Counted from the stretch's first letter, positions 7,808 to 51,283 are shown. The stretch is DNA of 64,000 bases from an uncultured Dehalococcoidia bacterium (GCA_958295765.1 CATQHB010000002.1:398424-462423), one strand, 5' to 3'. A program made the numbers and translations. The notes: generated by a model from the sequence alone, not told the origin.

Positions 7808-7893
7808 CATATTTAAGCCGGGCAATCGCCTTTTGCGCTGCTGTGTTAAAATTAACCGCAGAGACCCGGAGACACCGGAATAGGAGAGGTCTT

Positions 7894-13917: not shown

Positions 13918-14091
13918 ATCGCCTAGCCCTCCTTTAACTGGAATTAACCGGCTGCTCCGGGCTGGGCCTATTGTTGCACATTCCGGCGTTCCCGGCTACC
14001 GGTTTTTTAACCGCAGTGGTACGGGGATACGCAAGGGTTTCTCCGAGGCAAATCTACCCTTTAACCTAGTAACCTAGACAACCCAGGCAAC

Positions 14092-14193
14092 AACCGTCGT
14101 TCCGGCGAAAGCCGGAATCCAGGAAATCCCCGGGGTAAAGAGCGATACAGCTATCGAGGATTCTGGATTCCGGCTTTCGCCGGAACGACGGTT
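14092..14193. repeat. Family B inverted-repeat element (B3)
   Basis: Full-length copy with both arms and the same internal orientation as B1 and B5. Confidence 0.7.
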
Positions 14194-14320
14194 GAATGGC
14201 GGGTTACGGGTTTATGATGCGATTGCCCGGTCCCGGTGGTGAAAAACGCCTTGATTGTATAATTATAATATGGCAGGGTAGCCGGAAGTACGGAACAGGA
14301 TAGAACAAAGGAGGCCGAAA

Positions 14321-15633: not shown

Positions 15634-16866
15634 TTGGATTCCGGCGACACGGCTTGGATGCTCACGTCCAGCGCTTTTGTTCTGTTGATGACCCTGCCGG
15701 GGCTTGCGATGTTGTACGCCGGACTGGTGCAATCCAAGTCCGTGCTTTCGGTGGTGTTGCAGTGCTATGTCATCGCCGCCATCGCCAGCTTGCTGTGGTT
15801 TTTCGTGGGCTACAGCCTGGCCTTCGGCGACAGCCTGTGGGGAGTTATTGGGGGGCTGGACAAGGCGTTTCTCCTGGGCGTAACTGTTGATTCGCAGCAC
15901 GGCTCGATCCCGGAAATAGTATTTGTCATCTTTCAGATGACCTTTGCGATTATCGCTCCGGCCATTATTGTCGGCGCTTATACGGAGCGGATGAAGTTTC
16001 CGGCGGTGCTAATTTTCAGCGGAGCCTGGACATTGCTGGTCTATGCGCCGATTTGCCACTGGGTCTGGGGCGGGGGCTGGCTTAACCAGTTGGGGTCGCT
16101 GCATTTGGGGATTATGGACTTTGCCGGCGGGGTGGTGCTCCACGCCAACGTGGGCGTAGCGGCGCTGGTGGTCGCCAAGGTAATCGGCCCAAGGCAGGGC
16201 TTTCCCGACCGGCTCCTGCCGCCCCACAATCCCGGAATGACCGCCGCCGGCGCCGGGATGTTATGGGTCGGCTGGTTCGGGTTCAACGGAGGCAGCCAGT
16301 TTGCCGCCGACGCCGTCGCGGGTATGGCGATAATGGTAACGCATATCGCGGCGACCGCCAGCGCCGTTACCTGGATGGCCGCCGAGTGGATTCGATACCG
16401 CCGGCCCTCCCTGATTGGCACGGTAACCGGCGTCATTGCCGGGCTGTCCGCCGTTACGCCGGCCTCCGGTTTCGTCGGCCCCTTTGGCGGGTTGATCCTG
16501 GGCGTAATCGCCAGCCTGGTATGCTTTTCTTTTGTCAGCATCATCAAGCGGCGGCTGCGAATTGACGACTCGCTGGACGTTTTCGCCGTTCACGGCCTGG
16601 GCGGCATTTTGGGCACCCTGTTGGTGTCCGTGCTGGCGATAAGCCTCCTGGGCGGCCAGGGTTTTCTAGTCGAAGGTCGGACCATTATCTTTCAGTTGGG
16701 CGTGCAGGCCCTGGGCATCGCCGCATCTATGGCGTGGGCGGCCCTGGTAACCTACCTGATTCTGAAGGTATTGAACCTGCTGATGGGCCAGATCCGGGTT
16801 GACCCGGAGGATGAAATCGTCGGGTTGGACCTGGCGACCCATGGTGAACGCGGTTACGACCTTTAA
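15634..16866 (+). CDS. amt: Ammonium transporter
   Basis: DTAWMLTSSAFVLLMTLPGLAMLYAG, FAGGVVLHANVG, DDSLDVFAVHGLGGILG. TTG start per the track. Confidence 0.9.
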   Translation: MDSGDTAWMLTSSAFVLLMTLPGLAMLYAGLVQSKSVLSVVLQCYVIAAIASLLWFFVGYSLAFGDSLWGVIGGLDKAFLLGVTVDSQHGSIPEIVFVIFQMTFAIIAPAIIVGAYTERMKFPAVLIFSGAWTLLVYAPICHWVWGGGWLNQLGSLHLGIMDFAGGVVLHANVGVAALVVAKVIGPRQGFPDRLLPPHNPGMTAAGAGMLWVGWFGFNGGSQFAADAVAGMAIMVTHIAATASAVTWMAAEWIRYRRPSLIGTVTGVIAGLSAVTPASGFVGPFGGLILGVIASLVCFSFVSIIKRRLRIDDSLDVFAVHGLGGILGTLLVSVLAISLLGGQGFLVEGRTIIFQLGVQALGIAASMAWAALVTYLILKVLNLLMGQIRVDPEDEIVGLDLATHGERGYDL

Positions 16867-16878
16867 TGCCTTTAATCA

Positions 16879-16959
16879 GGTATTCTCAACCGGTGTTGAG
16901 GTTCCTGGCCCGGATGCCGGAGTATTCCGGCCAGAATACCAACTCGTGCTGAGAATACC
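16879..16959. mobile_element. Family A short form (A4): outer element without an inner insert
   Basis: GGTATTCTCAACCGGTGTTGAGG...GAATACCAACTCGTGCTGAGAATACC. Confidence 0.6.
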
Positions 16960-17176
16960 CTTAAAATCATTGACAGATGAATAAATTATTGGTAATTGAT
17001 AGGTGTATTATCACCTGAACCCCACTTATGGTAAACTTGACGCCGTTCAAGGTGAGCGGGATGAGAACGGTTCAGGGATTCCCGGACGTATCAACCGGAT
17101 TATTCGGGCCGGCGCTGCGGAAGGCGGCCAGGCAAGGGCAAACAATCAAAAGTGGAAAAGTGAAGGAGGGCAACCG

Positions 17177-17512
17177 ATGAATGTGGAAAGTCGGCGGGAG
17201 GGCGAGAACCTGGTCTTGATTACCGATGGTCGCGTTGACGGCACCAACGCCACCGATTTTCAGGACGCGATGAAACAGGCGATTCAGGCCAGCGACACGG
17301 CGGTAGTCCTGGACTTTGAGAACCTGACCTATATCAGCAGCGCGGGCCTCCGGGTCGTCTTGCTGGTCGCCAAGGACCTTCAGCGTCAGGGAGCGAAGTT
17401 TGCCGCCTGTTCGCTCTCCTCGACCGTTAAAGAGGTTTTCGTGATTAGCGGTTTTGACAAAATCATCCCGGTTCACGATACTCAAGAGGCGGCGATCGGC
17501 TCTTTCGGCTAG
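17177..17512 (+). CDS. STAS-domain anti-sigma-factor antagonist (RsbV/SpoIIAA-like)
   Basis: LDFENLTYISSAGLRVVLL carries the conserved Ser. RBS GAAGGAGGG precedes ATG 17177. The track ORF starts earlier, at 17003. Confidence 0.85.
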   Translation: MNVESRREGENLVLITDGRVDGTNATDFQDAMKQAIQASDTAVVLDFENLTYISSAGLRVVLLVAKDLQRQGAKFAACSLSSTVKEVFVISGFDKIIPVHDTQEAAIGSFG

Positions 17513-17665
17513 ACCGGATTCGCCCGAGGGACTACCTAAACCCGTTACCGGAACGGCCGGATTGACCCCGATCCCGGCCCCGGTATCGGCGTATCTGCCG
17601 TATATACTCGGAACAGTTTCAAGAGAATTACCGATAGCCACGATAGCCAATAATCTTGGCAAGGG

Positions 17666-18838
17666 ATGGAACCGATGGCACAGCCGTTCAAGATTCTGGT
17701 GGTGGACGACGAGCCGGACCTGGAGCCGCTGATGCTCCAGCGGATGCGCCGCCATATCCGCGCCGGCGAGTATGACTTTGTCTTTGCCCATAATGGCATT
17801 GAGGCGCTGGAGCGGCTGCAACAGGAAGATGACATCGACATGGTCATCTCCGACATCAATATGCCGCAGATGGACGGCCTGACCCTGCTGGAGCAGATTC
17901 CCAAGGTGGACCCCAATATCCGCTCCGTCATTATTTCGGCCTACGGCGATATGAAGAACATTCGCACGGCGATGAATCGGGGGGCCTTCGACTTCGTCAC
18001 CAAGCCCCTGGACTTCGACGACCTGCGGATTACGATTGAGCGGACGGTCAGCCACCTGGTCGAATGGCGGGACGCCCTCTCCTCCCGGGACAAGCTGGTG
18101 GTGTTGCAGAATGAGCTGGACGTTGCCAGCAAGATGCAGCAGTCCATACTGCCTACCCTGTTCCCGGCGGGTCCCGACTACCGCTACTTTGCCAGTATGG
18201 AGCCGGCCCGGAACGTGGGCGGCGATTTCTACGACACGCTGCGGCTGGACGAAGGGCGGATTGGCCTGGCGATTGCCGATGTGTCTGGCAAGGGCGTGCC
18301 GGCGGCCCTGTTTATGATGTCCAGCCGCACCCAGCTGAAGGGGGCGGCTATCGGCAACCACTACCCGGGGGCCGTGCTGCGGGAGGTCAACCAATTGCTG
18401 TGCCAGGACAACGACACGATGATGTTCGTTACCCTGGTGTACGTGGTCTATGACCCGGCCAGCGGGGAGATTACCTTTGCCAACGGCGGCCATAACCAGC
18501 CGCTGATTCGCCATACCGACGGAAGTTCCACCCTGCTCCCCTTGACCGGCGGGATTGCCCTGGGGGTGGCTCCCGACATTGATTACGACCAGGAAACCGT
18601 TACCCTCGCCCCCGGCGAGGCCCTGGTGCTCTACACCGACGGCGTTACCGAGGCGATGAACTCGGCGGATGAGGAGTTCGGCCTGGAGCGCTTGTGCGAA
18701 GTCCTGACGGCCACTTCCTCTGATGACCCTCGGGAAGTGAACCAGGCCATTTTCGACGGGGTCAGGGCCTTTGCCGGCGGCACGCCTCAATCCGACGACA
18801 TTACCTGCCTGACCCTTTGCCGCAGTCGAGGCTCCTGA
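17666..18838 (+). CDS. Response-regulator receiver fused to a PP2C/SpoIIE phosphatase (RsbY/RsbU-like)
   Basis: REC domain: ILVVDDEPD...DMVISDINMPQMDG...KP. PP2C domain: VGGDFYD, IADVSGKGVPAALFM, YTDGVTEA. Confidence 0.88.
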   Translation: MEPMAQPFKILVVDDEPDLEPLMLQRMRRHIRAGEYDFVFAHNGIEALERLQQEDDIDMVISDINMPQMDGLTLLEQIPKVDPNIRSVIISAYGDMKNIRTAMNRGAFDFVTKPLDFDDLRITIERTVSHLVEWRDALSSRDKLVVLQNELDVASKMQQSILPTLFPAGPDYRYFASMEPARNVGGDFYDTLRLDEGRIGLAIADVSGKGVPAALFMMSSRTQLKGAAIGNHYPGAVLREVNQLLCQDNDTMMFVTLVYVVYDPASGEITFANGGHNQPLIRHTDGSSTLLPLTGGIALGVAPDIDYDQETVTLAPGEALVLYTDGVTEAMNSADEEFGLERLCEVLTATSSDDPREVNQAIFDGVRAFAGGTPQSDDITCLTLCRSRGS

Positions 18839-19257
18839 TGAGCGAGAAACTGGCGTTAAAGCTGAGTAACAACGTCGAGGAACTGGAGCGAATCACCGCT
18901 GCCGTAGAAGCCCTGGCGGAGCAGGAGGACTGGCCCCCGGCCTTTACCTTTCGGGTGAACCTGGTGCTGGAAGAGTTTGGCATAAACATCATAAACTACG
19001 GCCATAGCGAAAGTTCTCAGGACTTTGAGATAACCCTGACTTCGGAAGTTGATACCCTGGTCATTGAGTTCTCCGACGAAGGCCAGCCCTTCAACCCTCT
19101 GGAAGATGCCGCCCCACCCGATACCGGGGCTAACCTGGAAGACCGGCCCATTGGCGGCCTGGGCCTCTTTCTGGTGCGGGAGATGACGGAACAGATGCAC
19201 TACCGGCGGGAGAACTCCAAAAATCACTCGACTATGGTAATGCGCAAGACCGAATGA
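18838..19257 (+). CDS. RsbW-like anti-sigma regulatory factor (Ser/Thr kinase, HATPase_c_2)
   Basis: Motifs LVLEEFGINIINYG, DEGQPFNP, GGLGLFLVREM. ATG overlaps the upstream stop (TGATG). Confidence 0.75.
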   Translation: MSEKLALKLSNNVEELERITAAVEALAEQEDWPPAFTFRVNLVLEEFGINIINYGHSESSQDFEITLTSEVDTLVIEFSDEGQPFNPLEDAAPPDTGANLEDRPIGGLGLFLVREMTEQMHYRRENSKNHSTMVMRKTE

Positions 19258-20540
19258 AACGAACACTTGGCGCGCTGACGGCAATGGCGTTGCTGCTGGC
19301 CGGGTTGGCGGGATGCACCGGCCTCGGCAATAATGCCGGGGCAGCTGAGGGCGGCGCCCCGGTTGCTGCCCCGCAGCTAGGCCGTGTCCTGCCCGGCGCC
19401 GCCAACTCCACCGCTGAGCCGACTAACGGGGTGGTCAGCGCCCCCCGCATCACCGACGACTTAATCCTTTTCGGCCAGTCCGCCGCCTTCAACGGCCCGG
19501 CCCGGGAACTGGGCAGCAATATGCGGCTGGGCATCCTGGCCGCCTTCCAGGAGGTCAACGAAGCCGGCGGCGTCCACGGCCGGCGGTTGGAACTGGTCTC
19601 CCTGGATGACGCCTACGAACCGGAGGCAGCCATCGCCAACACCCTGCGCCTGATTGAAGAGGAACGGGTGTTTGCGCTGATTGGCGCCGTCGGCACCCCC
19701 ACGTCCCGCTCCGCTACCCCCATCGCCGCCGATGCCGAAGTTCCCTACGTCGCTCCCTTCACCGGCGCCGCCTTCCTGCGCGATCCCGGGTGGGAGAACA
19801 TCATCAACCTGCGCTCCTCCTACAATCAGGAGACCGAGGAGATGGTGGCCCGGCTGACCGACGACCTGGGCATAGAGCGCATCGGGGTGATGTACCAGGA
19901 TGATTCCTTTGGGCGCGCCGGCTACCGGGGGGCCTTGGGCGCCCTGGAGCGGCGGGGTATGGAGCCGGTATCCGTCGGCCTGTATCCCCGCAACACTACG
20001 GCGGTAAAGACCGGGCTGCTCCAACTGCGCCGGGGCGACCCGGAGGCGGTGATTCTGGTGGGCGCCTACCAGCCGGTGGCGGCGTTGATTGCCTGGGCCA
20101 GGCATACCGGAATGGATCCGGTCTTTATGACGGTATCCTTTGTGGGCAGCAACGCCCTGGCCGAGGAACTGGGGCCGAGGGGCGCCGGGGTCTTTGTAAC
20201 CCAGGTGGTGCCTTTCCCCACCGACGATACCCTGCCCATCGTCGCCGCCTACCACCGCGCCCTGGCGGCCTATGAGCCGGGGGCGGTGCCCGGGTTTGTC
20301 TCCCTGGAGGGCTATCTGGCGGGACGGCTGGCAATCGCCGGGCTGGAACGCTGTGGCCGGGAGGTCAGCCGGGCCTGTTTCCTGGACAGCGTGCGCACCG
20401 CCGATAACATTGACCTGGACGGGTTTCCGCTGCGTTACGGGGCCGGCGACAATCAAGGCTCGGATACGGTTTTCCTGACGGTCATCGGCACCGACGGCCG
20501 TTATCATCCCATTGACCGGTTAGGGGAGGCGACGCCGTGA
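19254..20540 (+). CDS. Type-1 periplasmic binding protein (LivK/Peripla_BP_6-like) lipoprotein
   Basis: Lipobox LLAGLAGC. Motifs GAVGTPTS and YQDDSFGRAG. ATGA start/stop overlap with the upstream gene. No permease or ATPase genes nearby. Confidence 0.8.
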   Translation: MKRTLGALTAMALLLAGLAGCTGLGNNAGAAEGGAPVAAPQLGRVLPGAANSTAEPTNGVVSAPRITDDLILFGQSAAFNGPARELGSNMRLGILAAFQEVNEAGGVHGRRLELVSLDDAYEPEAAIANTLRLIEEERVFALIGAVGTPTSRSATPIAADAEVPYVAPFTGAAFLRDPGWENIINLRSSYNQETEEMVARLTDDLGIERIGVMYQDDSFGRAGYRGALGALERRGMEPVSVGLYPRNTTAVKTGLLQLRRGDPEAVILVGAYQPVAALIAWARHTGMDPVFMTVSFVGSNALAEELGPRGAGVFVTQVVPFPTDDTLPIVAAYHRALAAYEPGAVPGFVSLEGYLAGRLAIAGLERCGREVSRACFLDSVRTADNIDLDGFPLRYGAGDNQGSDTVFLTVIGTDGRYHPIDRLGEATP

Positions 20541-22723
20541 AAGACCGACTGAAGCGCTTGCGCCATTTTCGGATTTCCACCCTGCTTTACCTGGGCTTTG
20601 GCGGGGCCGTGGCCCTGACTATGGCCGCCAGTCTGGTGGGCTGGTTTTCCTTCAACCGGGTGGGAGAGGCCCAAAGCCAGGTGAACGAGGACAGCATCCC
20701 GGAGATGGCCGCCGCCTTTGGCGTCGCCGAATACAGCAGCGTGCTGGTGGCCGCCGCCCCCCGGCTGACCGCCGCGTCAACCCTGGAAGAGCTGGAGGCT
20801 ACCTACGCCAGCATCTCCGACGCGAACCAGGCCCTGGAGTCCCAATTGGAAGTTCTGGAGGAGGAGGGCAGCCAGGACAACAAGCGGTTCCAGCGGATCC
20901 GCGCCCATTCCTACACCCTGACTTCCAACATTGAGGCCATCCGCTACCAGCACGCCCGGTTGTTTGAGTTGGCCGACCGGCGGGAAACCCTGCAAACTGA
21001 ACTGGCCGACATCCGCAGCCGTTTGGGGGCTACGGTGGTGCCGGCCATTGACGACCAGCTTTTTTATACGGTAACCGGCTACCGGGTACTGGGCGAACCC
21101 CCGGCGCCGGTTACCGAGCATTTTTCCGAGGAGGAGTTCAACCGTTACCGGCTCCTCTACGAACTGCTATCGGACGCCAATATCGCCGCGGAGTTGCTGG
21201 CTAACGCCTTTACCCTGACCGACCCGGAGGCCATTGAACCCTTCCGGGAACGGTTCGAGTCGGCGGACAGCCGGATTGAGCGCAATCTGGCGGCGTTGGA
21301 AACTTCCCCGGTGTACGATGACATCGCCCCGGTCTTTGCCCGGTTGTCCGAGTTGGGCATCGGGGAGCAGAGCGGGTTCACCCTGCTCAGCCAGGAACTG
21401 CGCCTGACCCAGGGGCAGCGGATTCTCCTAGAGTTCAACCGGGACGAGGCCGTGGCCCTGGTCGCCGAGGTTGACGGCCTGGTGGTCGAGGCCCGGGCCA
21501 GCGCCCAGTCGGCTACCCAGTCGGCTACCCAGGCAATCCTGACCGGGCGCACCCTGCTGCTGGCAATCAGCGCCATCAGCGTCGGCGGCGCCTTTCTCAT
21601 CGCCTGGCTGCTGGTGGGCCGGGTGCTGCTGCGCCGCATCGGAATGGTGTCGGAGTGGATGCGCCGCATGGCCGACGGCGACCTGGAGGTCAGCGTTGAG
21701 GTCGGCGGCAATGATGAGGTTACCGATATGGCTACCGCGCTGGAGGTGTTCCGCCGCCACGCCGTAGAGGTGCAGCGCCTGAACCTGGTGGAAAAGCTGG
21801 CGGAAGACCTGCAAGGGAAAAACGGTGAACTGGAACAGGCCCTGGTTGACCTCCAGCAGGCCCAGGACCAGATTGTCGCCCAGCAGAAACTGGCAAGCCT
21901 GGGCGAACTGACCGCCGGCGTGGCCCACGAAATCAGGAACCCGCTGAACTTCGTCAAGAACTTCTCCGAATCTTCCGCTGAGCTGATTACGGAAATGCAG
22001 GAACTGCTGGAGGAAGAGGGCGATGAAATAGACGCCAAGCAGCGGGACCTGATTCGGGAGATAACCGAAGACCTCACCACCAACCTGGAGCGCATCCGCA
22101 ACCATAGCGACCGGGCCAACCGCATTGTTCACGATATGCTGATGATGAGTCGCGGTTCGGGCGACGCTCAGGCCACCGACATCAACAACTTGCTGGACGA
22201 ACACGCCCGGCTGGCCTACCACAGTGTGCGGGCCACCGACCCGGACTTCCAGCTTGACCTGCGGCAGGAACTGGACCCGGACTTGGGTGAAATGGAGGTC
22301 GTTCCCCAGGAGTTGGGGCGGGTTTTCCTGAACATGGTGAGCAACGCCTGCTACGCCACCAACGAGAAACAACAGGCCGCCCGGGCAAGCGGCGAGAGCT
22401 ACTATCCCACCTTGCAGCTTACCACCCGGCGCGGCGAAGGCCAGGTAGAAATCAGCATCCGGGACAACGGCAACGGTATGCCGCCGGAGATTGTCGAAAA
22501 GATCTTCAACCCCTTCTTCACCACCAAGCCGGCCAACGAGGGCACCGGACTGGGGTTAGCCATATCCAGCGACATCGTGCGCCAGCACGGAGGCGCCATC
22601 CGGGTTAACTCGGAGCCGGGCGAGTTTACCGAAATGGTGGTTGAACTGCCCCTTTCCCGCCCAACGGCGCCGCCGCCGGAAGCGGAAGCAGAAATGGCCG
22701 AGGAAGTCGCCGCCGAGCCGTAG
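20537..22723 (+). CDS. Sensor histidine kinase (2 TM, ~300-aa extracytoplasmic domain, HAMP, HisKA, HATPase)
   Basis: H-box GVAHEIRNPLN, DNGNGMPPE, GTGLGLAIS. GTGA overlap with the upstream gene. Confidence 0.9.
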   Translation: MKDRLKRLRHFRISTLLYLGFGGAVALTMAASLVGWFSFNRVGEAQSQVNEDSIPEMAAAFGVAEYSSVLVAAAPRLTAASTLEELEATYASISDANQALESQLEVLEEEGSQDNKRFQRIRAHSYTLTSNIEAIRYQHARLFELADRRETLQTELADIRSRLGATVVPAIDDQLFYTVTGYRVLGEPPAPVTEHFSEEEFNRYRLLYELLSDANIAAELLANAFTLTDPEAIEPFRERFESADSRIERNLAALETSPVYDDIAPVFARLSELGIGEQSGFTLLSQELRLTQGQRILLEFNRDEAVALVAEVDGLVVEARASAQSATQSATQAILTGRTLLLAISAISVGGAFLIAWLLVGRVLLRRIGMVSEWMRRMADGDLEVSVEVGGNDEVTDMATALEVFRRHAVEVQRLNLVEKLAEDLQGKNGELEQALVDLQQAQDQIVAQQKLASLGELTAGVAHEIRNPLNFVKNFSESSAELITEMQELLEEEGDEIDAKQRDLIREITEDLTTNLERIRNHSDRANRIVHDMLMMSRGSGDAQATDINNLLDEHARLAYHSVRATDPDFQLDLRQELDPDLGEMEVVPQELGRVFLNMVSNACYATNEKQQAARASGESYYPTLQLTTRRGEGQVEISIRDNGNGMPPEIVEKIFNPFFTTKPANEGTGLGLAISSDIVRQHGGAIRVNSEPGEFTEMVVELPLSRPTAPPPEAEAEMAEEVAAEP

Positions 22724-22805: not shown

Positions 22806-23516
22806 ATGACCACCATCAACGACATCAACGACCTGGCCCGGATTCTCCGGGAACAACCGGAGTGGGTTGACACCCTCCGCAGCCTGTTGCTGACCCAGGA
22901 ACTGCTGGAACTGCCTGACCGCTTGGCCGACCTGGTCCGGGTAGTTGAGGCTATGAACCAAAGGCTAGACCGAATGGAAGGTCGTCTTGACGGAATGGGA
23001 GTCCGTCTTGACGAAATGGGAGTCCTTCTTGACGGAATGGGAGTCCGCCTTGACAGCGTGGAAGGCCGTCTTGGTAGCTTGGAAGGCCGTTTCAGCAATC
23101 TGGAAGGCAACGACTACGAGCGCCGGGTGCGGTATCGAGTCCTCTCCCGAGTGCAGCAATACTTCGGCATGCCCGACGCCTACTTGGCCCTGACCCAGAA
23201 TGACCCGGAAGCCCGGGAACTGAGCCGGGCCATTACCCATGCCATCAGGAACTCCGTCGTCAGCCACGACGAAGTGGACGACCTGCATAACACCGACATT
23301 ATCATCTCGGACCCGGATAACCGCCATGCGGCCATTGAGGTGAGCATTACGGCCAGCCGGGAAGACGTTGAACGCGCCCAACGCCGGGCCGAGACCCTCG
23401 GCAAGGCTACCGGCGGAACCACCCGGGCCATCGTGGCTACCGTCAACCTGCGGGACGACGTGGCCCGCCAGGCCGAAGTCGCCGGCGTGGCCGTGCTGGT
23501 TATCCCGGCCACCTGA
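22806..23516 (+). CDS. Hypothetical protein: heptad-repeat coiled coil plus a C-terminal PD-(D/E)XK-like domain
   Basis: N-terminal INDLARILREQPEW, seven heptads, and C-terminal TDIIISD...AIEVSITASREDVERAQRRAETL. The family name is not certain. Confidence 0.6.
   Translation: MTTINDINDLARILREQPEWVDTLRSLLLTQELLELPDRLADLVRVVEAMNQRLDRMEGRLDGMGVRLDEMGVLLDGMGVRLDSVEGRLGSLEGRFSNLEGNDYERRVRYRVLSRVQQYFGMPDAYLALTQNDPEARELSRAITHAIRNSVVSHDEVDDLHNTDIIISDPDNRHAAIEVSITASREDVERAQRRAETLGKATGGTTRAIVATVNLRDDVARQAEVAGVAVLVIPAT
22974..23120 (+). repeat. Seven in-frame 21-bp tandem repeats (MEGRLDG/MGVRLDE/MGVLLDG/MGVRLDS/VEGRLGS/LEGRFSN/LEGNDYE)
   Basis: Read directly from DNA and from the translation. Confidence 0.8.
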
Positions 23517-26386: not shown

Positions 26387-26407
26387 TCGTCTGCCAGTTG
26401 AGGTCGG

Positions 26408-26791
26408 TCATGGAGCGTCAGCCCTCGCGGGGTTCTCTTCATCCAGTTCCCATTGGAGCGGATTGTTGACTACGTACTCTCGAATCCGCTCCAATTCGTC
26501 CTCATCCCGCACAATGCGTTCGTAGTAATTCCGCTGCCACAAGCGGCTGCCTGAGACACCGCAGGCGAGGTTGACCTGCTTTGTGCTGACCGTCTTGAAA
26601 GCTCCAATCAAACGCCCCAAGGGTTTGCGTTGCCTGGCCGGGGCGGTTCCCGGCGGTGTAGGGGCGATTCGCGAATCGCCCCTACGGGGGGCATCAACAA
26701 TCACGGTAATGCCGTGCAGATGGTTCGGCATCTTCCAGGTGTCGGCCACCAAACGGCCGGGGTGTAACGGCTGGTCAATGGGAACCCTCAT
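26408..26791 (-). pseudogene. 5'-truncated IS200/IS605-type Y1 (RAYT-like, COG1943) transposase remnant
   Basis: HUH motif PNHLHGI and C-terminal WQRNYYERIVRDEDELERIREYVVNNP are present. Only about 22 codons precede the HUH, so the usual N-terminal beta-strand region is missing. Confidence 0.55.
26658..26685. repeat. Perfect 28-bp palindrome inside the transposase remnant
   Basis: GTAGGGGCGATTCGCGAATCGCCCCTAC. It shares GTAGGGGCG...CGCCCCTAC ends with the family A hairpins. Confidence 0.8.
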
Positions 26792-26847
26792 CAGTGGTGG
26801 GTGCGTCCTGTTGGATGCCAGCTTCGGTGCGGGTGGTCATGGGGTTT

Positions 26848-27789
26848 CTAAACTCCCGGGCCCTCACCAATAACAGCGAGGATGCGGTTTTTCAGCTTTT
26901 CGCGCAGGTCTTCGGGCGTGGTCCAGACTATGTGGTTATAGTGGTTGGTGTCGAAGTGCAGCTTATCCACATCACCTTCTTTACAGGTGAAGATGACTTG
27001 GAGGCCAAGTCCATGGGCGAATCCGGCTTCGTAATACACTCCACCTCTCGCCCCGCTGTCTCCCTGGGTAAAATCGGCCACGACAAATCTTGAGCGGCGG
27101 ATTTCGGCGATGATCTCATCATCAATCTTGTTGGTATGTTCTTTTCGGTCAACCCGGAATGGTTCGTAGCCAGCATCCCTAATCCCAGGTTCGATACCAT
27201 CCTGACAAGCTTCATTCATACTCTCGTCGAACCACATAGCGACGAATGCTTGAGAGGAATCGACGTTGGTCGCTTGGTCGGCGATGCGACCGTAGCCTTC
27301 TACTGTTACTATGCCAGAGAAGTAACCGTTTAGAGAATGAGTTCCTCTGATCCAGTTCTTCTCCTCCAGATATTGTAGAAGGAAACCGACTTCAAGCTCT
27401 GAAATCGATTCAGACTGTGCAAGCGCAGCAGGATCATCATAAGGAACGCCAACATAAAATCCGGCTATTCTTGATTTTTCCGCGATAAGTCGAAGCAGTC
27501 TCTCGGCTCGTTCATAAGGCGGCATGGGGTGTTTGCGTTCTATATGCTTTACATCCTCAATGGTGATTGATGGCCTCTCCGTTCCTCGCAAACGCTGATC
27601 AATAAGCCATGAGGTCAATATGCTCTTCTGTGAGTCGTCAAATTCACTAACCGCGAGTTCCGCCTCTCGGGTAATTATATATGCGCCACCTGCCCGAGAA
27701 GACTCCACAAATTTTCTGAACCCATCATTCCTTACATTCGCCTCGTATGGGGCACCCCAGATTGGGCATATATCAGTTGTAGTTGTCAT
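26848..27789 (-). CDS. Uncharacterised protein with a C-terminal nucleoside 2-deoxyribosyltransferase/TIR-like domain
   Basis: C-terminal pattern FVAMWFDESM...IDDEIIAEIRRSRFVVADFT...GGVYYEAGFAHGLGLQVIF. The N-terminal half has a possible winged-helix (LLQYLEEKNWIRG..VTVEGYGRI). Local GC is about 45% in one 60-nt line counted, against a visibly GC-richer background. Confidence 0.6.
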   Translation of the reverse strand: MTTTTDICPIWGAPYEANVRNDGFRKFVESSRAGGAYIITREAELAVSEFDDSQKSILTSWLIDQRLRGTERPSITIEDVKHIERKHPMPPYERAERLLRLIAEKSRIAGFYVGVPYDDPAALAQSESISELEVGFLLQYLEEKNWIRGTHSLNGYFSGIVTVEGYGRIADQATNVDSSQAFVAMWFDESMNEACQDGIEPGIRDAGYEPFRVDRKEHTNKIDDEIIAEIRRSRFVVADFTQGDSGARGGVYYEAGFAHGLGLQVIFTCKEGDVDKLHFDTNHYNHIVWTTPEDLREKLKNRILAVIGEGPGV

Positions 27790-27808
27790 TCCAATTACCT
27801 CTCATGTT

Positions 27809-28060
27809 TCAGTCAGTCTTGCGAAACCTGCACACGCTTGCTACAGACTGCTCTGCCCATCTCACCCTAACCTCCCCCGACACCAGCCCCGGCAAAACTG
27901 CATCCCGCAAAGTGGCGAGAGTGCGGGATTCCGCTATGACCAACCGAACCGGTTCATCTAATAATAGGCCGAAGGTTCCAAAGGAATCAACTACTTCTGC
28001 TGGCGTTTCTACCGCTGCCAGTGCCTCAAATGTCCCTGTATGTTCGTGCTGCCGGATTTT
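27809..28060 (-). pseudogene. hsdS: Type I restriction-modification specificity subunit (HsdS) C-terminal remnant
   Basis: The tail of an otherwise antisense ORF reads ...ESRTLATLRDAVLPGLVSGEVRV, the conserved HsdS C-terminal helix motif. No N-terminal TRD, hsdM or hsdR is present. Confidence 0.5.
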
Positions 28061-28210
28061 CTGTTGCAACTCCTCAACTGCGTAGTAGGTGAATGAACTT
28101 GAATTACCCGCCCCCCGCCCCCATCCTTGACAAGCAGCATACGCTTCTTTAGCATCACTGATAAAGTGATAAAGTGCTGAAGTGCTAAAGCCGGAGCGGG
28201 AGGTGTGCTT

Positions 28211-29461
28211 ATGAAAGCCCTGGTCGGAGCCAATCTTATAGACGGAACCGGTGGCCCGGTGGTCAACGATGCTACGGTCTTGATTGACGGCGAGCGCATT
28301 GTGGAAACCGGCCGGCGCGAGGCGGTCGTCCTGCCGCCCAACACCGAAGTAGTTGACCTGGCCGGCCTGACCCTGATGCCCGGCATGATTGACTGCCACG
28401 ACCATCTGGCCTCCAAGGATTACGGGCTGCCCAGCCGGATGGGTTACCACGAACCCCTGTCCCTCCAGCACCTGCGCACCGCCCGGGTCCTGGAGCAGAC
28501 CCTGGCCGCCGGTTATACCTGCGTCCGGGACGCCGGGGGGCTGGATGCCGGTTTCAAGCAGGCGGTGGAGCAGGGGCTGTACCCCGGCCCCCGGCTGGTG
28601 CTGTCGGTAGCCATTATTTCCCCCACCGGCGGGCTGGCCGACAAGGTAACGCCCTCCGGCCAGTGCTATCCCCACGATGACCCGATGATACCCTCCGGGG
28701 TGGCCGACGGGGATGATCCGGTGCGGGCCAAGGTTCGGGAGATGGCCCGGGTGGGCGCCGACGTCATCAAGTTCGCTACCACCGGCGGGGCCAGTTCCCG
28801 CCCCGGACACGGCCCGCTGGACATTGCCTTTGGCCCTTCGGAAGTGCGCGCCCTGATTGCGGAGGCGCAAGCCCTGGGGCGCCGGACGATGTGCCACGCC
28901 GTCGGCGGGCCGGGCCTGCGAATGTGCGTCGAGGCCGGCGCCCACTCCATAGAACACGGCTGCTACTTGGCCGAAGACCCGGACCTGCTCAAGATGATGG
29001 CCGACAACGGCATTTTCCTGGTGCCTACTTTTGAGATTTACGAATTTCACGCCACCCTCAGCGCGCCCCATATGCAGGCCCGCTCCCGCGCCCTGATGGA
29101 CATTCACCGGGAGACGCTGCACCAGGCCCTGGCCGCCGGGGTCAAGGTCGTGGCCGGCACCGACGCCGGCGGGTACGTTCACGGCGACAACGCCCGGGAA
29201 GTCCAGATTATGGTGGAACGGGGTATGCCCAATATGCAGGCCATCCAGGCTTGCACCGGCTGGGCCGCCGAATGTGTTGGTCTGGGTAAGGACATCGGCA
29301 CGGTGACCAAAGGGAAGTACGCCGACCTGCTGGTCGTGGACGGCGACCCGCTCCGCCACATTGAGGTCTTGCGCCAACCGGAGAGCATCAAGCTGGTAAT
29401 GAAGGGCGGGGTCGCCGCCGTGGACAAGCTGCCGGCCCGCGCCCCGTCCCTGGTAGCGTAA
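28211..29461 (+). CDS. Amidohydrolase-family metal-dependent hydrolase
   Basis: MPGMIDCHDHL, CHAVG, GTDAG, and the N-terminal beta-sandwich ILIDGERIV. GGGAGG RBS lies 7 nt before ATG 28211. Confidence 0.85.
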   Translation: MKALVGANLIDGTGGPVVNDATVLIDGERIVETGRREAVVLPPNTEVVDLAGLTLMPGMIDCHDHLASKDYGLPSRMGYHEPLSLQHLRTARVLEQTLAAGYTCVRDAGGLDAGFKQAVEQGLYPGPRLVLSVAIISPTGGLADKVTPSGQCYPHDDPMIPSGVADGDDPVRAKVREMARVGADVIKFATTGGASSRPGHGPLDIAFGPSEVRALIAEAQALGRRTMCHAVGGPGLRMCVEAGAHSIEHGCYLAEDPDLLKMMADNGIFLVPTFEIYEFHATLSAPHMQARSRALMDIHRETLHQALAAGVKVVAGTDAGGYVHGDNAREVQIMVERGMPNMQAIQACTGWAAECVGLGKDIGTVTKGKYADLLVVDGDPLRHIEVLRQPESIKLVMKGGVAAVDKLPARAPSLVA

Positions 29462-43954: not shown

Positions 43955-45775
43955 CTAAGGGGTATCGTAAAGTTCGATTGGCGCCCCCGGAGTCAAGTCC
44001 AGCCCTTGCAGACCCGGGTAGTCCGGCGCATACCGATAAGCGCGGTACACCTGATTAGCCGGTACTACTCTACCACTTCTCAGTTCTTCCGTCGGCACCG
44101 GCTCGCCTTGACGCACCGGGCCGTCGTTGGTCGTCGGGTTGACGTACTGCCAAACCGTTTTGCCGGCCGGCGTTACCTCAAAAAGTGTGCCGTTCACCCC
44201 GTCGCAAATCAGCGTGTTGCCGTTGGGCAGCCGTTGCGCCCCGGAGATGTAAGGGGCGTAAAAGTCGCCGGGCGTCGGGGCGGTATAAGTCCATACCGGT
44301 TCTCCCGGCGCATAAGCCAGGCCGGAGTCCAGCCGGTAATTGGCCCCGTCCACCGGCGGAACAATCTCATCTACCGACGAGTAAGTGCGGGGGAGAGCCG
44401 TTGACTCGTCGCCATTGTTGAAAATGAGGATGTTTCCGGCGCCGGGCTGGCCGGGGGGAATCCATTGCGGATTATGCTGCGAGAAAAGTTGCTGGTCAGC
44501 AATCGTCCCGGCCCGATAGGCGAGGGGGTTGCCCCAGCGGTACAGCAAGTCGCCCCCCTGGCCGCTATTGCCGCCGCCGGAGCCGGCCGCCTCGGCTCTG
44601 GTGGTACTGTGGTCGATAATCCACACTTCGCCGAAATTACTAGGCGACAGCACGATCTGGTCCAATTCCGGGCTATAGTCGATTCCGTTGCTGTGTATCC
44701 AGTCCGACGGGTCTGAATAATTGGTTGTCTCGGCAAGGCGGAAGTTAAGGTCAATCAGCTCCGGATGCTCGGCCACCACGCCGTAATTGGCCTTGCCGGG
44801 GTCAAAGTCCTGAATCAGATGATCCCACGCCGACCATTCCCAAACGATTTCGCAGCTTGCCGTCCCGGTAATTCGGGCTTCCACGATATGCGGCGCCAGC
44901 AAGCCATTACCGTCAGGGTCGATGAATTCCGGGTTGGCGCCGGCGGCGATGGCCTCCTCCGGCGTTTTACGTTGCCGGGACAGTAGCAGCACGTTCCCGT
45001 TGGGCATTTTAAGGAAGTCATGATGCGGATTCCCCTGAGTACAGTTCCAAAGGATGTTCCCGTTCCAGTCAATTTCCTGCACATAGCGGCCCTGCTCGGT
45101 ATTGACTAAAGTCAGCAGATTGCCATTCTCCAGCAACTTTGCTAACGCGGCATTGCCCGCCAACTCCCACCGGTGCACCTCCCGCCCCTGATTATCAATC
45201 AGGTAAAACGTCTTGGTGCGGCGTTTATTAAATAAAGTATAGCCCTCAAATGCCTCCGGCTCATTCAGGAACAACCCGACGGTCCTGGTGTCCGGCGTCG
45301 GGGTAACGGTGGGCGCAGGGGTTGGCGTGGTGGTGGGTGTAGGGGCCGGCGTAGCGGTAGGTGTAGGAACCGGCGTAGCGGTAGGTGTAGGAACCGGCGT
45401 AGCGGCAAGTGTAGGAACCGGCGTAGGGGTAGGTGCAGGAACCGGCGTAGGGGTAGGTGCAGGAACCGGCGTAGCGGTAGGTGTAGGTATAAGGGCCGGC
45501 GTAGCGGCAGGTATAGGGGCCGGCGTAGCGGTAGGTACAGGAGTTGGCGTAACAACCGGCGCCGCCGTTGGGCGGGGCGTTGACCTATCGACCGGTTCCG
45601 CGTTGCTGCAAGCCAGTAGTGAAACTACTGCTACGCCAAGCAGGACCGCAACGGCGACAATCCGGCGCAATTTACTGGTTGCGCCGCGTCGGAAAAATCG
45701 GAAAGGGGAGTAAGAAACATCCTTGTGTGCAGCCGTTTCAGCAAATCCATTGCGCCGCGTCAACCTTATCCGCAA
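43955..45775 (-). CDS. Arylsulfotransferase (ASST)-like beta-propeller lipoprotein, paralog 1
   Basis: Signal and lipobox VVSLLAC|S, Pro/Thr linker, then [95 protein letters not shown]. Start codon uncertain. Confidence 0.6.
   Translation of the reverse strand: MRIRLTRRNGFAETAAHKDVSYSPFRFFRRGATSKLRRIVAVAVLLGVAVVSLLACSNAEPVDRSTPRPTAAPVVTPTPVPTATPAPIPAATPALIPTPTATPVPAPTPTPVPAPTPTPVPTLAATPVPTPTATPVPTPTATPAPTPTTTPTPAPTVTPTPDTRTVGLFLNEPEAFEGYTLFNKRRTKTFYLIDNQGREVHRWELAGNAALAKLLENGNLLTLVNTEQGRYVQEIDWNGNILWNCTQGNPHHDFLKMPNGNVLLLSRQRKTPEEAIAAGANPEFIDPDGNGLLAPHIVEARITGTASCEIVWEWSAWDHLIQDFDPGKANYGVVAEHPELIDLNFRLAETTNYSDPSDWIHSNGIDYSPELDQIVLSPSNFGEVWIIDHSTTRAEAAGSGGGNSGQGGDLLYRWGNPLAYRAGTIADQQLFSQHNPQWIPPGQPGAGNILIFNNGDESTALPRTYSSVDEIVPPVDGANYRLDSGLAYAPGEPVWTYTAPTPGDFYAPYISGAQRLPNGNTLICDGVNGTLFEVTPAGKTVWQYVNPTTNDGPVRQGEPVPTEELRSGRVVPANQVYRAYRYAPDYPGLQGLDLTPGAPIELYDTP
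45280..45586 (-). repeat. Pro/Thr/Ala-rich linker built from ~24-bp imperfect tandem repeats (paralog 1)
   Basis: Iterated GGCGTAGCGGTAGGTGTAGGAACC-type units on the plus strand, giving [17 protein letters not shown]... Confidence 0.65.
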
Positions 45776-45862
45776 AGCTCAAACAGCCTCCTCACACCCG
45801 GTATTGGAGCAGGAATTATGGTAATAGTCAGCAACGAACTCGTCAAGGCGGTATTGCCCGGC
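45776..45862 (-). promoter_or_regulatory. Conserved 5' module of ASST paralog 1 (putative promoter plus RBS)
   Basis: Minus strand reads TTGACG (45846-45841), 17 nt, TACCAT (45823-45818), ... GAGGAGG (45793-45787). It is near-identical upstream of all five paralogs. Confidence 0.35.
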
Positions 45863-47623: not shown

Positions 47624-47710
47624 AGCTCAAACAGCCTCCTCGCACCCGAGATTGGAGCGGGAATTATGGTAATAGTCAGCAGTGAAGTCGTCAAGGCGGT
47701 ATTGCCCTGG
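47624..47710 (-). promoter_or_regulatory. Conserved 5' module of ASST paralog 2
   Basis: Same CGTCAAGG...TTATGGTAATAGTCAGCA...CCTCCTC blocks (plus-strand reading). Confidence 0.35.
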
Positions 47711-49483: not shown

Positions 49484-49570
49484 AGCCCGGACAACCTCCC
49501 CGCACCCGAGATTGGAACGGGAATTATGGTAATAGTCAGCAACGAACTCGTCAAGGCAGTATTGCCCAGG
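49484..49570 (-). promoter_or_regulatory. Conserved 5' module of ASST paralog 3
   Basis: Same conserved blocks. RBS variant GGGGAGG. Confidence 0.35.
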
Positions 49571-51283
49571 CTAAGGGCTGTCGTAAAGTTCGATTGGCGC
49601 CCCCGGAGTCAAGTCCAGCCCTTGCAGACCCGGGTAGTCCGGCGCATACCGGTAAGCGCGGTACATCTGATTAACCGGTATTTCTATTTCTACACCACCT
49701 ACCCAGTCCAATTTTTGCAACGGCACCGGCTCGCCTTGACGCAAAGGGCCGTCGCTGGACGTCGGGTTGACGTACTGCCAAACCGTTTTGCCGGCCGGCG
49801 TTACCTCAAAAAGCGTACCGTTTACCCCGTCGCAAATCAGCGTGTTGCCGTTGGGCAGCCGTTGCGCCCCGGAGATGTAAGGGGCGTAAAAGTCGCCGGG
49901 CGTGGCGGCGGTATAAGTCCATACCGGTTCGGCCGGCCCATAAGCCTGGTCGGGGTCCAGCCGATAGTTGGCCCCGTCCACCGGCGGAACCAGCTCATCT
50001 ACCGACGAATAACCGCGCCGGAAATCCGGGAACTCGTCGCCATTGTTGAAAATGAGGATGTTGCCGGCGCCGGGCCGGCCGGGGGGAATCCATTCAGGAT
50101 TATGGGGCCAGAATAGTTGCTGGTCGTCGGCCGTCCCGGCCCGATAGGCGCGGGGGTTGCCCCAGCGGTACAGCAGGTCGCCCCCCTTGCCGCTATTTCC
50201 CCCGCTGGAGCCGGCCGCCTCGGCCCGGGTGGTGCTGTGGTCGATAATCCACACTTCGCTGAAATGACGGGGCAACAGCATAATCTGGTCCAGTTCCGGG
50301 TTATAGTCGATTCCGTTGCTGTGGATCCAGTCCATCGGGTCTAACCAGTCGGCTACCTCGGCCAGGCGGAAGTTAAGGTCAATCAACTCCGGGTGTTCGG
50401 CCACCACGCCGTAATTGGCCTTGCCGGGGTCAAAATCCTGAATCAGATGATCCCACGCCGACCATTCCCAAACGATTTCGCAGCTTGCCGGCCCGGTGAT
50501 TCGGGCCTCTACAATATGCGGCGCGAACAAGCTATCGGCGGCGATGAAGTCCGGGTTGGCGCCGGCGGCGATGACCGCCGCGGCGGGTTTATGTTGCAAG
50601 GACAGCAGCAGCACGTTCCCGTTGGGCATTTTAAGGAAGTCATGATGCGGGACGCCCTGCATACAGTCCCAAAGGATGTTCCCGTTCCGGTCAACTTCCC
50701 GCACACTGCGCTCCGGTTCCCGGTCCAGGTCTCTGGCGAAAGCCAGCAGATTGCCGTTCTCCAGCAACCTGGCGAACAGGGTCCGGCGCTCCAACTCCCA
50801 CCGGTGCACCTCCCGCCCCTGATTATCAATCAGGTAAAGCGTCGGGGTGCCCCGTTTATTAAATAAAGTATAGCCGTCAAACGCCTCCGGCTCATTCAGG
50901 AGCACCCCGACGGTCCTGGCGGCCGGCGTCGGGGCAGCGGTGGGCGCCGGGGTTGGCGTAAGGGTAGGCTCAGGGATCGGCGTAGCGGTGGGTGTCGGGG
51001 CCGGTGTAGGGGTAGGTGTCGGAACCGGCGTAGGGGTAGGCTCAGGAACCGGCGTAGGGGTGGGCGCCGGGGTGGGCGCCGGGGTAACAACCGGCGCCGT
51101 TGTTGGACGGGGTGTTACCCTCTCGACCGGCTCTGTGTCGCTGCAAGCCAGCAGGGAAACTACTGCTACGCCAAGCAGGACCGCAACCGCGACAATCCGG
51201 CGCAATTTACTGGTTGCGCCGCGTCGGAAAAGTCGGGGGAGCGGGGGACATACTTGAGCCGGTAGCCGTTTCAGCAAATCCAT
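49571..51283 (-). CDS. ASST-like beta-propeller lipoprotein, paralog 4 (the only copy with the conserved ATG in frame)
   Basis: Starts [11 protein letters not shown]...[14 protein letters not shown].., lipobox LLAC|S. Same propeller motifs. Confidence 0.6.
50902..51118 (-). repeat. Pro/Thr/Ala-rich linker repeats (paralog 4)
   Basis: [34 protein letters not shown]... Confidence 0.6.

Follow-up and report, generated by a model that had tools for sequence, protein, structure and literature searches.

The window analysed here is a stretch of 64,000 nucleotides from an uncultured Dehalococcoidia bacterium, in which five co-directional genes occupy positions 17177 to 22723 of the + strand. The first encodes a STAS antagonist of 111 amino acids (17177-17512; Pfam STAS, 7e-19) and is followed by genes for a REC-PP2C phosphatase (17666-18838; Response_reg, 1e-24, and SpoIIE/PP2C, 5e-56), an RsbW-like kinase of 139 amino acids (18838-19257; HATPase_c_2, 5e-23), a solute-binding lipoprotein of 428 amino acids (19254-20540; Peripla_BP_6, 3e-54) and a membrane histidine kinase of 728 amino acids (20537-22723; TorS_sensor_domain, HAMP, HisKA and HATPase_c). 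The original prediction, made from the same DNA, had named the five genes and seven of their domains, all of which were detected by Pfam. It had also described translational coupling of the last four genes, and the overlaps are present in the sequence exactly as described: TGATG at 18836-18840 (phosphatase stop and RsbW-like start), ATGA at 19254-19257 (RsbW-like kinase and binding protein) and GTGA at 20537-20540 (binding protein and histidine kinase). Gene callers on sister contigs choose the second ATG of the phosphatase gene, at 17675, which is likely to be its true start rather than 17666.

Directly upstream, on the same strand, is a gene for an ammonium transporter (Amt, 15634..16866; Pfam Ammonium_transp, 5.9e-112), which is likely to be a functional neighbour outside the signalling core. 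Amt and the STAS gene are separated by an AT-rich spacer (16867..17176, + strand) that, at 310 bp, is longer than in relatives. It is probably a promoter region, and a ribosome-binding site, GAAGGAGG, precedes the STAS ATG at 17177. The spacer matched no Rfam family, and no remnant of glnK was found in it.

In alignments of 65 to 81 homologues, every catalytic and phospho-acceptor residue is conserved. The STAS protein is a single domain of the anti-sigma antagonist type; among solved structures, TM1442 and SpoIIAA are its nearest relatives. Its predicted phosphorylatable serine lies in Y-I-S54-S55-A-G-L, and both serines of this ISSAGL motif are 100% conserved (65 homologues). The RsbW-like protein is a serine kinase of the anti-sigma type with intact ATP-binding boxes; N50 of the N-box, D80 and G82 of G1, and G106, G107 and G109 of G2 are invariant in 73 sequences. 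In the phosphatase, D63 (counted from 17666) is the predicted phospho-acceptor of the receiver, where D14, D15, D63, S91 and K113 are shared by at least 98% of 81 sequences, as are the metal-binding aspartates of the PP2C domain (187, 205, 325, 377 and 378; 98 to 100%). REC-PP2C phosphatases are controlled via a helical linker (PMC12143880).

The histidine kinase begins with a transmembrane helix, followed by a periplasmic TorS-type double four-helix bundle (amino acids 40-340; nucleotides 20654-21556, + strand), a second transmembrane helix, HAMP (21611-21757), HisKA with H464 (21899-22153) and HATPase_c (22304-22657). Three tests agree that the periplasmic domain is of the TorS type. The Pfam family TorS_sensor_domain (PF21689) is matched just above its threshold of 27 bits, at 27.3. 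A family profile compared with solved structures aligned with the whole length of 3O1H, the sensor of TorS (E=9e-5; profile positions 59-324, TorS residues 6-275). The AlphaFold2 single-chain model of the kinase sensor (pLDDT 92.2) retrieved only TorS in its top five Foldseek hits, including TorS-TorT complexes (TM 0.74/0.83). Conservation is 100% at H464, N603, D643, G647 and G669/G671/G673. HATPase_c is the last domain of the kinase, which is non-hybrid: Pfam detected neither REC nor Hpt in it, and the annotated neighbourhood (+/-10 kb) encodes no Hpt domain. The sole receiver nearby is the one fused to PP2C.

The binding protein consists of a lipobox (LAG|C) and variable tether (residues 1-65), followed by a highly conserved binding domain. 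Among solved structures it is closest to 4KV7 from Rhodopirellula baltica (1.8e-73), and it matches the LIV-type binding protein LivJ (1Z15) at 1e-12. The residues by which LivJ grips the alpha-amino and carboxylate groups of its ligand we take to be Y18, S79, T102, Y202 and E226. The corresponding pocket positions are invariant among the 81 family members, and all 81 have Ser for E226, Leu for Y18 and Phe for A100, in an alignment that is uncertain by about one residue; with the same uncertainty, S79 is replaced by Thr, and T102 and Y202 may persist, shifted by one residue. As the ligand-holding residues of LivJ are partly replaced, the sequence suggests that the ligand belongs to a different class, a standard alpha-amino acid being improbable. 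The label 'LivK-type' originally given to this protein describes the fold (Peripla_BP_6) rather than the pocket, where the glutamate that holds the amino group in LivJ is aligned with serine in every member.

Related loci with this gene order number 80 and come from eight phyla, many lying on closed chromosomes; as the best of at least 533 hits, they bias figures for conservation upward. Within this set the binding protein is 66 to 79% identical to that of the window. The genes for the binding protein and the kinase are neighbours in 80/80 loci, and the REC-PP2C gene lies with them in one operon-like block in 78/80. Distance matrices of these three core proteins correlate (Mantel r 0.74-0.82, p=0.001), the kinase and REC-PP2C diverging together with r=0.82. 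This common evolutionary history, together with the shared block, speaks for a cognate relationship between the histidine kinase and the phosphatase. The RsbW-like gene is present, and translationally coupled to the phosphatase gene, in 72/80 loci, and 64/80 carry a STAS gene. Both genes are absent from the other eight loci without RsbW (Gammaproteobacteria and Spirochaetia, two phyla), which have the three core genes only, while seven Dehalococcoidia loci keep the RsbW-like gene with no STAS gene within 10 kb; in all, 15 complete loci yielded no STAS gene within a distance of about 10 kb. The sensor core may therefore do without the partner switch, or these genomes may encode the parts of the switch elsewhere. 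The predicted five-gene module stands as a conserved order, but its invariant part is limited to REC-PP2C, binding protein and kinase.

Protein identity between phyla is as high as within phyla (about 70% for the binding protein), and in the tree the other phyla nest among Dehalococcoidia clades. Both features of the sequences point to horizontal spread of the cassette between phyla. This probably took place within sponge-associated communities, to judge from the names of the metagenome-assembled genomes and from neighbouring GPP34 genes.

The cassette itself is not known to have been studied before. Our preferred reading, to which we give a probability of about 0.6, is that it is an operon-encoded pathway coupling extracytoplasmic solute detection to a serine-phosphorylation partner switch. 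The lipid-anchored Peripla_BP_6 protein would bind a small molecule and dock on the TorS-type periplasmic domain of the kinase, in the manner of TorT on TorS, for which thermodynamics and structure provide a mechanistic precedent (PMC8050422). Docking would alter autophosphorylation at H464, and phosphate would pass from the kinase to D63 of REC-PP2C, switching the phosphatase through its helical linker. The RsbW-like kinase would phosphorylate Ser54/55 of the STAS protein and the phosphatase would strip that phosphate; unphosphorylated STAS would then capture the RsbW-like protein and free its bound target. For that target, encoded elsewhere in the genome, an alternative sigma factor or some other regulator is the likeliest candidate. 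Every physical contact in this scheme, like its output and the sense in which each step switches, is drawn by analogy from TorT/TorS and from RsbK/RsbY/RsbV/RsbW of B. cereus.

The original prediction had likened the logic to B. cereus RsbK-RsbY-RsbV-RsbW or Pseudomonas HptB-HsbR-HsbA. For the input, TorT/TorS is a closer analogue than either. In B. cereus the partner switch acting on SigB is driven by a two-component system (PMC4574943) and, as in the domains found here, a histidine kinase is combined with a REC-PP2C phosphatase, a STAS antagonist and an RsbW-type kinase. RsbK, however, is a hybrid kinase of the cytoplasmic type that carries a REC of its own, works with a methylation partner (RsbM) and lacks a binding protein, and sigB lies in the cluster. 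The cassette kinase, in contrast, is non-hybrid and has a TorS-type periplasmic sensor, an adjoining binding protein and no sigma gene nearby. Because its periplasmic domain is of the TorS type, the pair formed with the binding protein resembles TorT/TorS, the trimethylamine N-oxide (TMAO) sensing system of E. coli and Vibrio, in which a dedicated orphan binding protein is also encoded beside a double four-helix-bundle kinase (PMC8050422). TorT differs in being listed under Peripla_BP_1 (PMC8050422), and TorS, which is hybrid, signals through an Hpt phosphorelay to the DNA-binding regulator TorR, whereas the cassette receiver forms one protein with a PP2C phosphatase. A 2021 review of sensor kinases lists none stimulated by a Peripla_BP_6 protein (PMC8050422).

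Pseudomonas HptB-HsbR-HsbA and RssB-RssC share with the cassette a phosphorelay input, a REC-PP2C protein that sets STAS phosphorylation and an operon with no dedicated sigma gene; their signals end at distant targets, FlgM and RpoS among them (PMC6482189, PMC12143880). HsbR, however, combines REC, PP2C and kinase in one protein and is fed via Hpt by several hybrid kinases, whereas in the cassette the 139-amino-acid kinase is a separate protein, Hpt is lacking, and a single dedicated sensor kinase is built into the operon together with its binding protein. Cognate sigma genes are likewise missing from the vicinity of V. fischeri SypE/SypA, Bordetella BtrU/V/W, Rhodobacter RbaV/W/Y and P. aeruginosa SiaABCD, some of whose outputs are non-sigma (PMC8256260, PMC3999984, PMC7647112). 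Unlike the cassette, none of these four has a binding-protein-dependent TorS-type kinase as input, and none is reported at about 70% identity across phyla.

The lack of a sigma factor, which had been singled out as a peculiarity, is real in the window but not unusual for partner switches, as SypE/SypA, BtrUVW, RbaVWY and HsbR/HsbA show (PMC8256260, PMC6482189). A phmmer search with SigB and RpoE covered the 64-kb window and the 80 loci (about 21 kb each) and found no SigB/F-type (group-3) sigma factor in any of them. Five loci have an RpoE-like ECF sigma gene 7 to 9 kb upstream, and two more gave weak matches. This result would also fit a tentative alternative, which ranks well below the preferred reading, in which the STAS protein is itself the output, as in SypA, BtrV or HsbA, acting on a non-sigma target, perhaps an adjacently encoded membrane transporter such as Amt or a Na+/H+ exchanger-CBS protein, with the RsbW-like protein serving only as its kinase and holding no sigma factor. 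Non-canonical STAS proteins with non-sigma targets are documented (PMC8256260). In the clade of the window, the STAS gene directly follows a close homologue of the Amt gene (57 to 84% identity) with gaps of only 76 to 144 bp, and in eight loci of the Latescibacterota/Gemmatimonadota type the STAS gene is separated from that of the phosphatase by a Na_H_Exchanger-CBS gene. However, such transporter genes adjoin the cassette in a minority of loci only, and we know of no direct evidence in any system for contact between STAS and Amt. The seven loci that keep RsbW with no nearby STAS gene are better explained if the RsbW-like protein has a target of its own.

It is less probable still, and in our view rather unlikely, that REC-PP2C is the real output, with the STAS/RsbW pair as an accessory add-on. 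It would then act on non-STAS substrates or partners, for example as an RssB-like adaptor delivering a sigma factor for degradation or as a phosphatase of other Ser/Thr-phosphorylated proteins. Such a role would suit both the invariant three-gene core, which stands alone in eight loci of two phyla, and the closest solved relative of the protein, P. aeruginosa RssB (3EQ2/3F7A), an active REC-PP2C protein that serves as a sigma-S adaptor with a STAS partner, RssC (PMC12143880). It sits poorly with the coupling of RsbW to the phosphatase gene in 72/80 loci, the presence of STAS in 64/80 and the full conservation of the PP2C catalytic residues; moreover, the three-gene genomes may carry STAS and RsbW genes elsewhere.

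The binding protein had been described as an orphan with no ABC permease or ATPase nearby, and this is borne out. The Peripla_BP_6 fold is common to LIV importers, but the LivH/M and LivG/F genes of such an importer are missing beside the cassette gene. No ABC importer genes were found in the annotated +/-10 kb or among large ORFs in the rest of the window, and phmmer with E. coli LivG and LivH against all ORFs of at least 90 amino acids gave zero matches in the window, so that membership of an unrecognised transporter close by finds no support there. A main role in transport for a distant ABC importer, with adjacency to the kinase reflecting dual use or co-regulation, is improbable, even though dual-function binding proteins such as ChvE and BctC exist (PMC8050422). 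A Liv-type importer (permease and cognate ATPases) lies 4 to 8 kb away in two sister loci (L029 and L037), but it comes with a separate binding protein that shares just 29% identity with that of the cassette, and the other 79/81 loci have no such importer; in eight further loci other ABC-type ATPases match LivG with no Liv-type permease. The overlap of the binding-protein stop with the kinase start and the adjacency of these genes in every locus also argue against transport, as does the sensor domain of the kinase, which is of the one fold class (TorS) known to act via a dedicated binding protein. Chance adjacency or mis-annotation of five genes with no functional module is negligible given the strong Pfam matches and translational coupling, and since the same order in 80 loci from other genomes and the correlated divergence of the core proteins exclude a chance arrangement, the five genes are a real signalling cassette.

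The surroundings of the cassette offer a hint of what it serves. Amt and/or genes for CP_ATPgrasp_2 (CP-ATP-grasp), Alpha-E and transglutaminase proteins are present at 33/81 loci, and in 19 a gene of this set directly follows the kinase on the same strand. Two distinct Amt subfamilies are represented, that in other phyla (about 30% identity) lying downstream of the kinase, and three loci also have GlnK. In marine metagenomes, CP-ATP-grasp, Alpha-E and transglutaminase domains vary together with those of urea metabolism (PMC3597751). From these neighbours, a nitrogen-related role is suggested: in the about 40% of loci for which this holds, the pathway may serve nitrogen acquisition.

The five co-directional genes of the cassette (window 17177-22723, + strand) would, by analogy, work as a TorT/TorS-type sensor feeding a RsbY/RsbV/RsbW-type partner switch, while being a member of neither system. 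The original prediction, a partner-switching module wired to a binding protein and a histidine kinase, was supported and sharpened to this form. All five ORFs lie exactly where predicted and Pfam returned every domain expected: STAS (17177-17512), Response_reg with SpoIIE/PP2C (REC-PP2C, 17666-18838; in sister contigs the called gene begins at the ATG at 17675), HATPase_c_2 (RsbW-like, 18838-19257), Peripla_BP_6 (binding protein, 19254-20540) and HAMP, HisKA and HATPase_c (kinase, 20537-22723). The overlapping stop and start codons, TGATG (18836-18840), ATGA (19254-19257) and GTGA (20537-20540), were likewise as claimed. The binding protein has an N-terminal lipoprotein signal (…LLAGLAG, followed by C); its residues ~1-65 are seldom alignable among relatives and may be read as a variable tether. 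Scanning for promoters and terminators gave consensus-level matches only. One of them, a sigma-70-like site (17454-17482, + strand; TTGACA, 17-nt spacer, GATACT; 10/12 matches), falls within the 3' end of the STAS gene; going by the consensus match, it could serve the four translationally coupled genes as an internal promoter, a reading given no weight here.

The kinase's match to the Pfam TorS_sensor_domain is borderline (27.3 bits against a cut-off of 27). A profile built from 33 kinase N-terminal regions matched the TorS sensor of the TorS-TorT complex (3O1H) over its full length (E=9e-5), and an AlphaFold2 model of kinase residues 40-340 (pLDDT 92.2, pTM 0.81) had only TorS structures among its five best Foldseek matches (3O1I_A, TM 0.74/0.83). 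TorS is the textbook kinase that senses via a dedicated, transporter-less binding protein (PMC8050422). The sensor domain is rare, with 408 examples at E<=1e-3 and 65 at E<=1e-30 among 1.84 billion cluster representatives. In contrast to TorT/TorS, the cassette kinase is not a hybrid, there is no TorR-like regulator and the binding protein belongs to a family other than that of TorT. Among the sensor kinases listed in a 2021 review of binding-protein signalling, none takes its stimulus from a Peripla_BP_6 protein.

Both the orphan state of the binding protein and the lack of a local sigma factor, predicted from the sequence, held on wider search. Neither an ABC permease or ATPase nor a sigma factor occurs within 10 kb either side in the precomputed annotation of near-identical sister contigs, and Pfam scans of the large ORFs elsewhere in the 64 kb found none. 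The sister contigs were reached via a binding-protein variant 99% identical to that of the window, whose own sequence gave no hit in an exact look-up. Among all window ORFs of >=90 aa, E. coli LivG and LivH queries had no match, and SigB and RpoE queries revealed no sigma factor. The ORF that follows the kinase gene (22806-23516, 236 aa) has no family match; as it was found only in the closest strains, it was not counted in the module.

The nearest solved relative of the binding protein is 4KV7 from Rhodopirellula baltica (E=1.8e-73), a structural-genomics entry. The family was aligned to the LivJ sequence, itself verified beforehand against 1Z15. At the positions that we take to be the ligand contacts of LivJ, all 81 family members (80 relatives and the window) are invariant. 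In this alignment the family differs from LivJ by Ser at E226, presumably the residue with which LivJ holds the amino group of its ligand, by Leu at Y18 and by Phe at A100. This pattern is suggestive of a family that probably recognizes one ligand, probably a compound other than a standard alpha-amino acid.

Every residue required for a working relay is conserved family-wide: H464 and the N, G1 and G2 boxes of the kinase; D14, D15, D63, S91 and K113 of the receiver; aspartates 187, 205, 325, 377 and 378 of PP2C; N50, D80, G82 and the G2 glycines of the RsbW-like protein; and S54 and S55 of STAS. Among solved structures, the phosphatase has its best match in P. aeruginosa RssB (3EQ2/3F7A), an active REC-PP2C that has a crossing helical linker and works together with a STAS partner (PMC12143880). 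On the model of TorT/TorS and B. cereus RsbK/RsbY/RsbV/RsbW, the signal would most likely start with the ligand-loaded binding protein modulating the kinase, which would in turn determine whether the receiver is phosphorylated. The phosphatase would be switched by the receiver, and the balance between phosphatase and RsbW-like kinase would then decide whether STAS captures the RsbW-like protein.

The five-gene order, proposed for survey in other genomes, recurs among relatives. Searching with the binding protein (one genome per species) gave at least 533, the best 80 of which were examined. These come from eight phyla in all: Chloroflexota (Dehalococcoidia and unclassified Chloroflexota), Acidobacteriota (Terriglobia), Rhodothermales, Spirochaetota (Spirochaetia), Gemmatimonadota, Latescibacterota, Actinomycetota (Acidimicrobiia) and Gammaproteobacteria, including Candidatus Rariloculaceae (a literature search for 'Rariloculus' found no paper). 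As many of the cassette-bearing relatives, with examples from all eight groups, are closed chromosomes, mis-binning cannot account for this distribution. With the window's proteins as tblastn queries, the binding-protein and kinase genes were adjacent in 80/80 loci and the REC-PP2C gene was within the same block in 78/80; the two exceptions were a truncated contig and L060, a Dehalococcoidia locus with two modules. HMM searches found all five genes in 64 loci, no STAS gene within 10 kb in seven loci of one Dehalococcoidia clade, and only REC-PP2C, binding protein and kinase in eight (five Gammaproteobacteria and three Spirochaetia). From these three layouts, the invariant core is the phosphatase-regulator, binding protein and kinase.

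In L060 (8872-18387) the two modules are linked. The first has STAS, RsbW, binding protein and kinase and no phosphatase; the second, 1.2 kb downstream, has a weak STAS-like ORF, REC-PP2C, RsbW and an 801-aa kinase and no binding protein. Two sensors may here converge on a single phosphatase. An apparent binding-protein/kinase fusion (P0262), considered as Rosetta-stone evidence, was rejected as a frameshifted fragment. The RsbW-like protein, used as a query for distant paralogues with surroundings that could betray the target, returned only members of its own family.

Core proteins are as similar between phyla as within them. Among the 80 best hits of at least 533, median identities between and within phyla were 70% and 70% for the binding protein, 68% and 69% for REC-PP2C and 60% and 61% for the kinase. 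A neighbour-joining tree built from the concatenation of these three proteins in the same hits, which carries no support values, places the other phyla as clusters embedded among the clades of Dehalococcoidia. Distance matrices of the core proteins were strongly correlated (Mantel r 0.74-0.82, p=0.001), indicating that the genes move as a unit, and flanking genes vary by clade, indicating that the cassette is resident in each genome. Taken together, the roughly 70% identity of binding proteins between phyla, the invariant pocket and the wide range of phyla argue for one shared ligand and for repeated horizontal transfer, which is likely to have occurred within one community, probably the sponge microbiome. 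The phyla set, MAG names (RHO/APA/COS bins, Langseth) and GPP34 neighbours lead us to infer that the carriers are sponge-associated bacteria. Eight loci, L010 (6236-6892), L011, L015, L018, L043, L044, L053 and L075, have a gene for GPP34 (Golgi phosphoprotein 3-like), proposed as a sponge-symbiosis marker across phyla (PMC11706023), within a few kb on the upstream side of the cassette.

On the output side, the cassette lacks the sigB gene of the B. cereus RsbK/RsbY/RsbV/RsbW system; none of the 81 loci contains a SigB/F-type sigma factor. An RpoE-like ECF sigma gene 7-9 kb upstream in five Latescibacterota/Gemmatimonadota-type loci is probably unrelated to the cassette, and clustering of neighbour genes over the 81 loci gave no conserved nearby DNA-binding regulator. 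Lack of a local sigma gene is not novel in itself, since it is already described for SypE/SypA, BtrUVW, RbaVWY, HsbR/HsbA and SiaABCD (PMC8256260, PMC6482189, PMC3999984, PMC7647112). The favoured reading is that the RsbW-like protein holds a sigma factor or regulator encoded elsewhere. The phosphatase might instead have other partners, as RssB itself has, or STAS itself might be the effector.

Neighbour genes clustered over the 81 loci suggest a connection with nitrogen. Ammonium transporter (Amt) genes occur in 31 loci, CP_ATPgrasp_2 in 20, Alpha-E in 19 and bacterial transglutaminase in 11, with at least one of the four in 33/81. In 19 loci the gene right after that of the kinase, on the same strand, is one of the four, with as little as 24-52 bp between the two. 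Upstream Amt proteins form a subfamily 57-84% identical to the window's Amt, a second subfamily (about 30% identical to it) is embedded in the downstream cluster, and Amt-GlnK is directly upstream of the STAS gene in three loci. CP-ATP-grasp, Alpha-E and transglutaminase domains, themselves uncharacterized, vary together with domains of urea metabolism across marine metagenomes (PMC3597751). Further clade-specific neighbours, namely hydantoinase A/B genes, a second Peripla_BP_6 gene and a Na+/H+ exchanger-CBS gene between the STAS and phosphatase genes, also point to nitrogen. From the recurrent Amt, the CP-ATP-grasp cluster and these clade-specific genes, a role in nitrogen acquisition is plausible, resting on the neighbourhood in about 40% of loci.

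In the window, the Amt gene (15634-16866) lies upstream of the cassette on the same strand, separated from the STAS gene by an AT-rich spacer of 310 bp. A degraded glnK in this spacer was ruled out, the sole match being the Amt C-terminus, and an Rfam scan of window 13-25 kb found no riboswitch or known RNA. In one Dehalococcoidia clade the Amt-STAS spacer has a conserved palindrome, CAGACGGCCAAT-N9-ATTGGCGTCTG (L017, about 7812-7845; also L027, L033 and L040), which overlaps a -10-like TATGAT(A) and may be an operator or a hairpin; the longer spacer of the window lacks it.

Several other features of the window were observed. An intergenic hairpin (14091-14195, + strand), a near-perfect inverted repeat with a stem of ~34 bp (MFE -86 kcal/mol, z=-10.4 vs shuffles), gave only sub-threshold microRNA-like matches in Rfam and could be a terminator, repeat element or miniature mobile element. 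At about 26400-29400, after a GMC oxidoreductase gene, GC falls to 0.546 from about 0.62; this region encodes a TIR-like effector (PADLOC, 7.7e-10) and a protein whose C-terminus resembles that of a type I restriction specificity subunit. The corresponding site encodes type I restriction HsdR/HsdS, DUF1828 and DUF6978 in sister strain L001 (17193-21287) and SMODS, DUF6602 and an AAA/SMC protein in sister strain L002 (17390-21287), so that it looks like a strain-variable defence island. Five tandem paralogous genes (43955-53207, - strand), each encoding a protein of 570-606 aa that matches arylsulfotransferase (PF05935, E about 1e-20), are a striking local expansion of a gene family. AT skew is strongly negative (-0.17 to -0.30) across 56225-61304 (+ strand), which spans two large membrane-protein genes, DUF2298 (806 aa) and PMT_2 glycosyltransferase-like (891 aa). 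One metagenome (ENA ERZ19489113, L084-L088) contains at least five contigs (four of 3.0-3.4 Mb, one of 0.5 Mb) with a 100% identical RsbW-like protein and the same context; thus, several strains of the window's organism co-exist.

Each building block of the cassette is familiar and the combination is undescribed in the literature searched, where no account of it was found (partner switching with solute-binding proteins; sponge symbionts with STAS/SpoIIE). Exceptional cross-phylum conservation, likely horizontal spread in one community type and a recurrent ammonium-transport link place it above an ordinary signalling operon. It is a bold and rather improbable extension that the cassette is a horizontally shared host/nitrogen-metabolite sensor of sponge-associated bacteria, with an invariant pocket for one compound, possibly a host-derived nitrogenous solute, and with a partner switch acting without sigma, post-translationally, on Amt and the CP-ATP-grasp/Alpha-E/transglutaminase proteins; if true, ammonium uptake would here be controlled by a route that does not involve GlnK. 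The recurrent link to Amt and CP-ATP-grasp/Alpha-E/transglutaminase genes is a concrete handle on both ligand and output. Identity of the output would bear on a question of long standing, namely what is controlled by partner switches that lack a sigma factor, and that of the ligand would reveal a chemical cue monitored by many unrelated uncultured symbionts.
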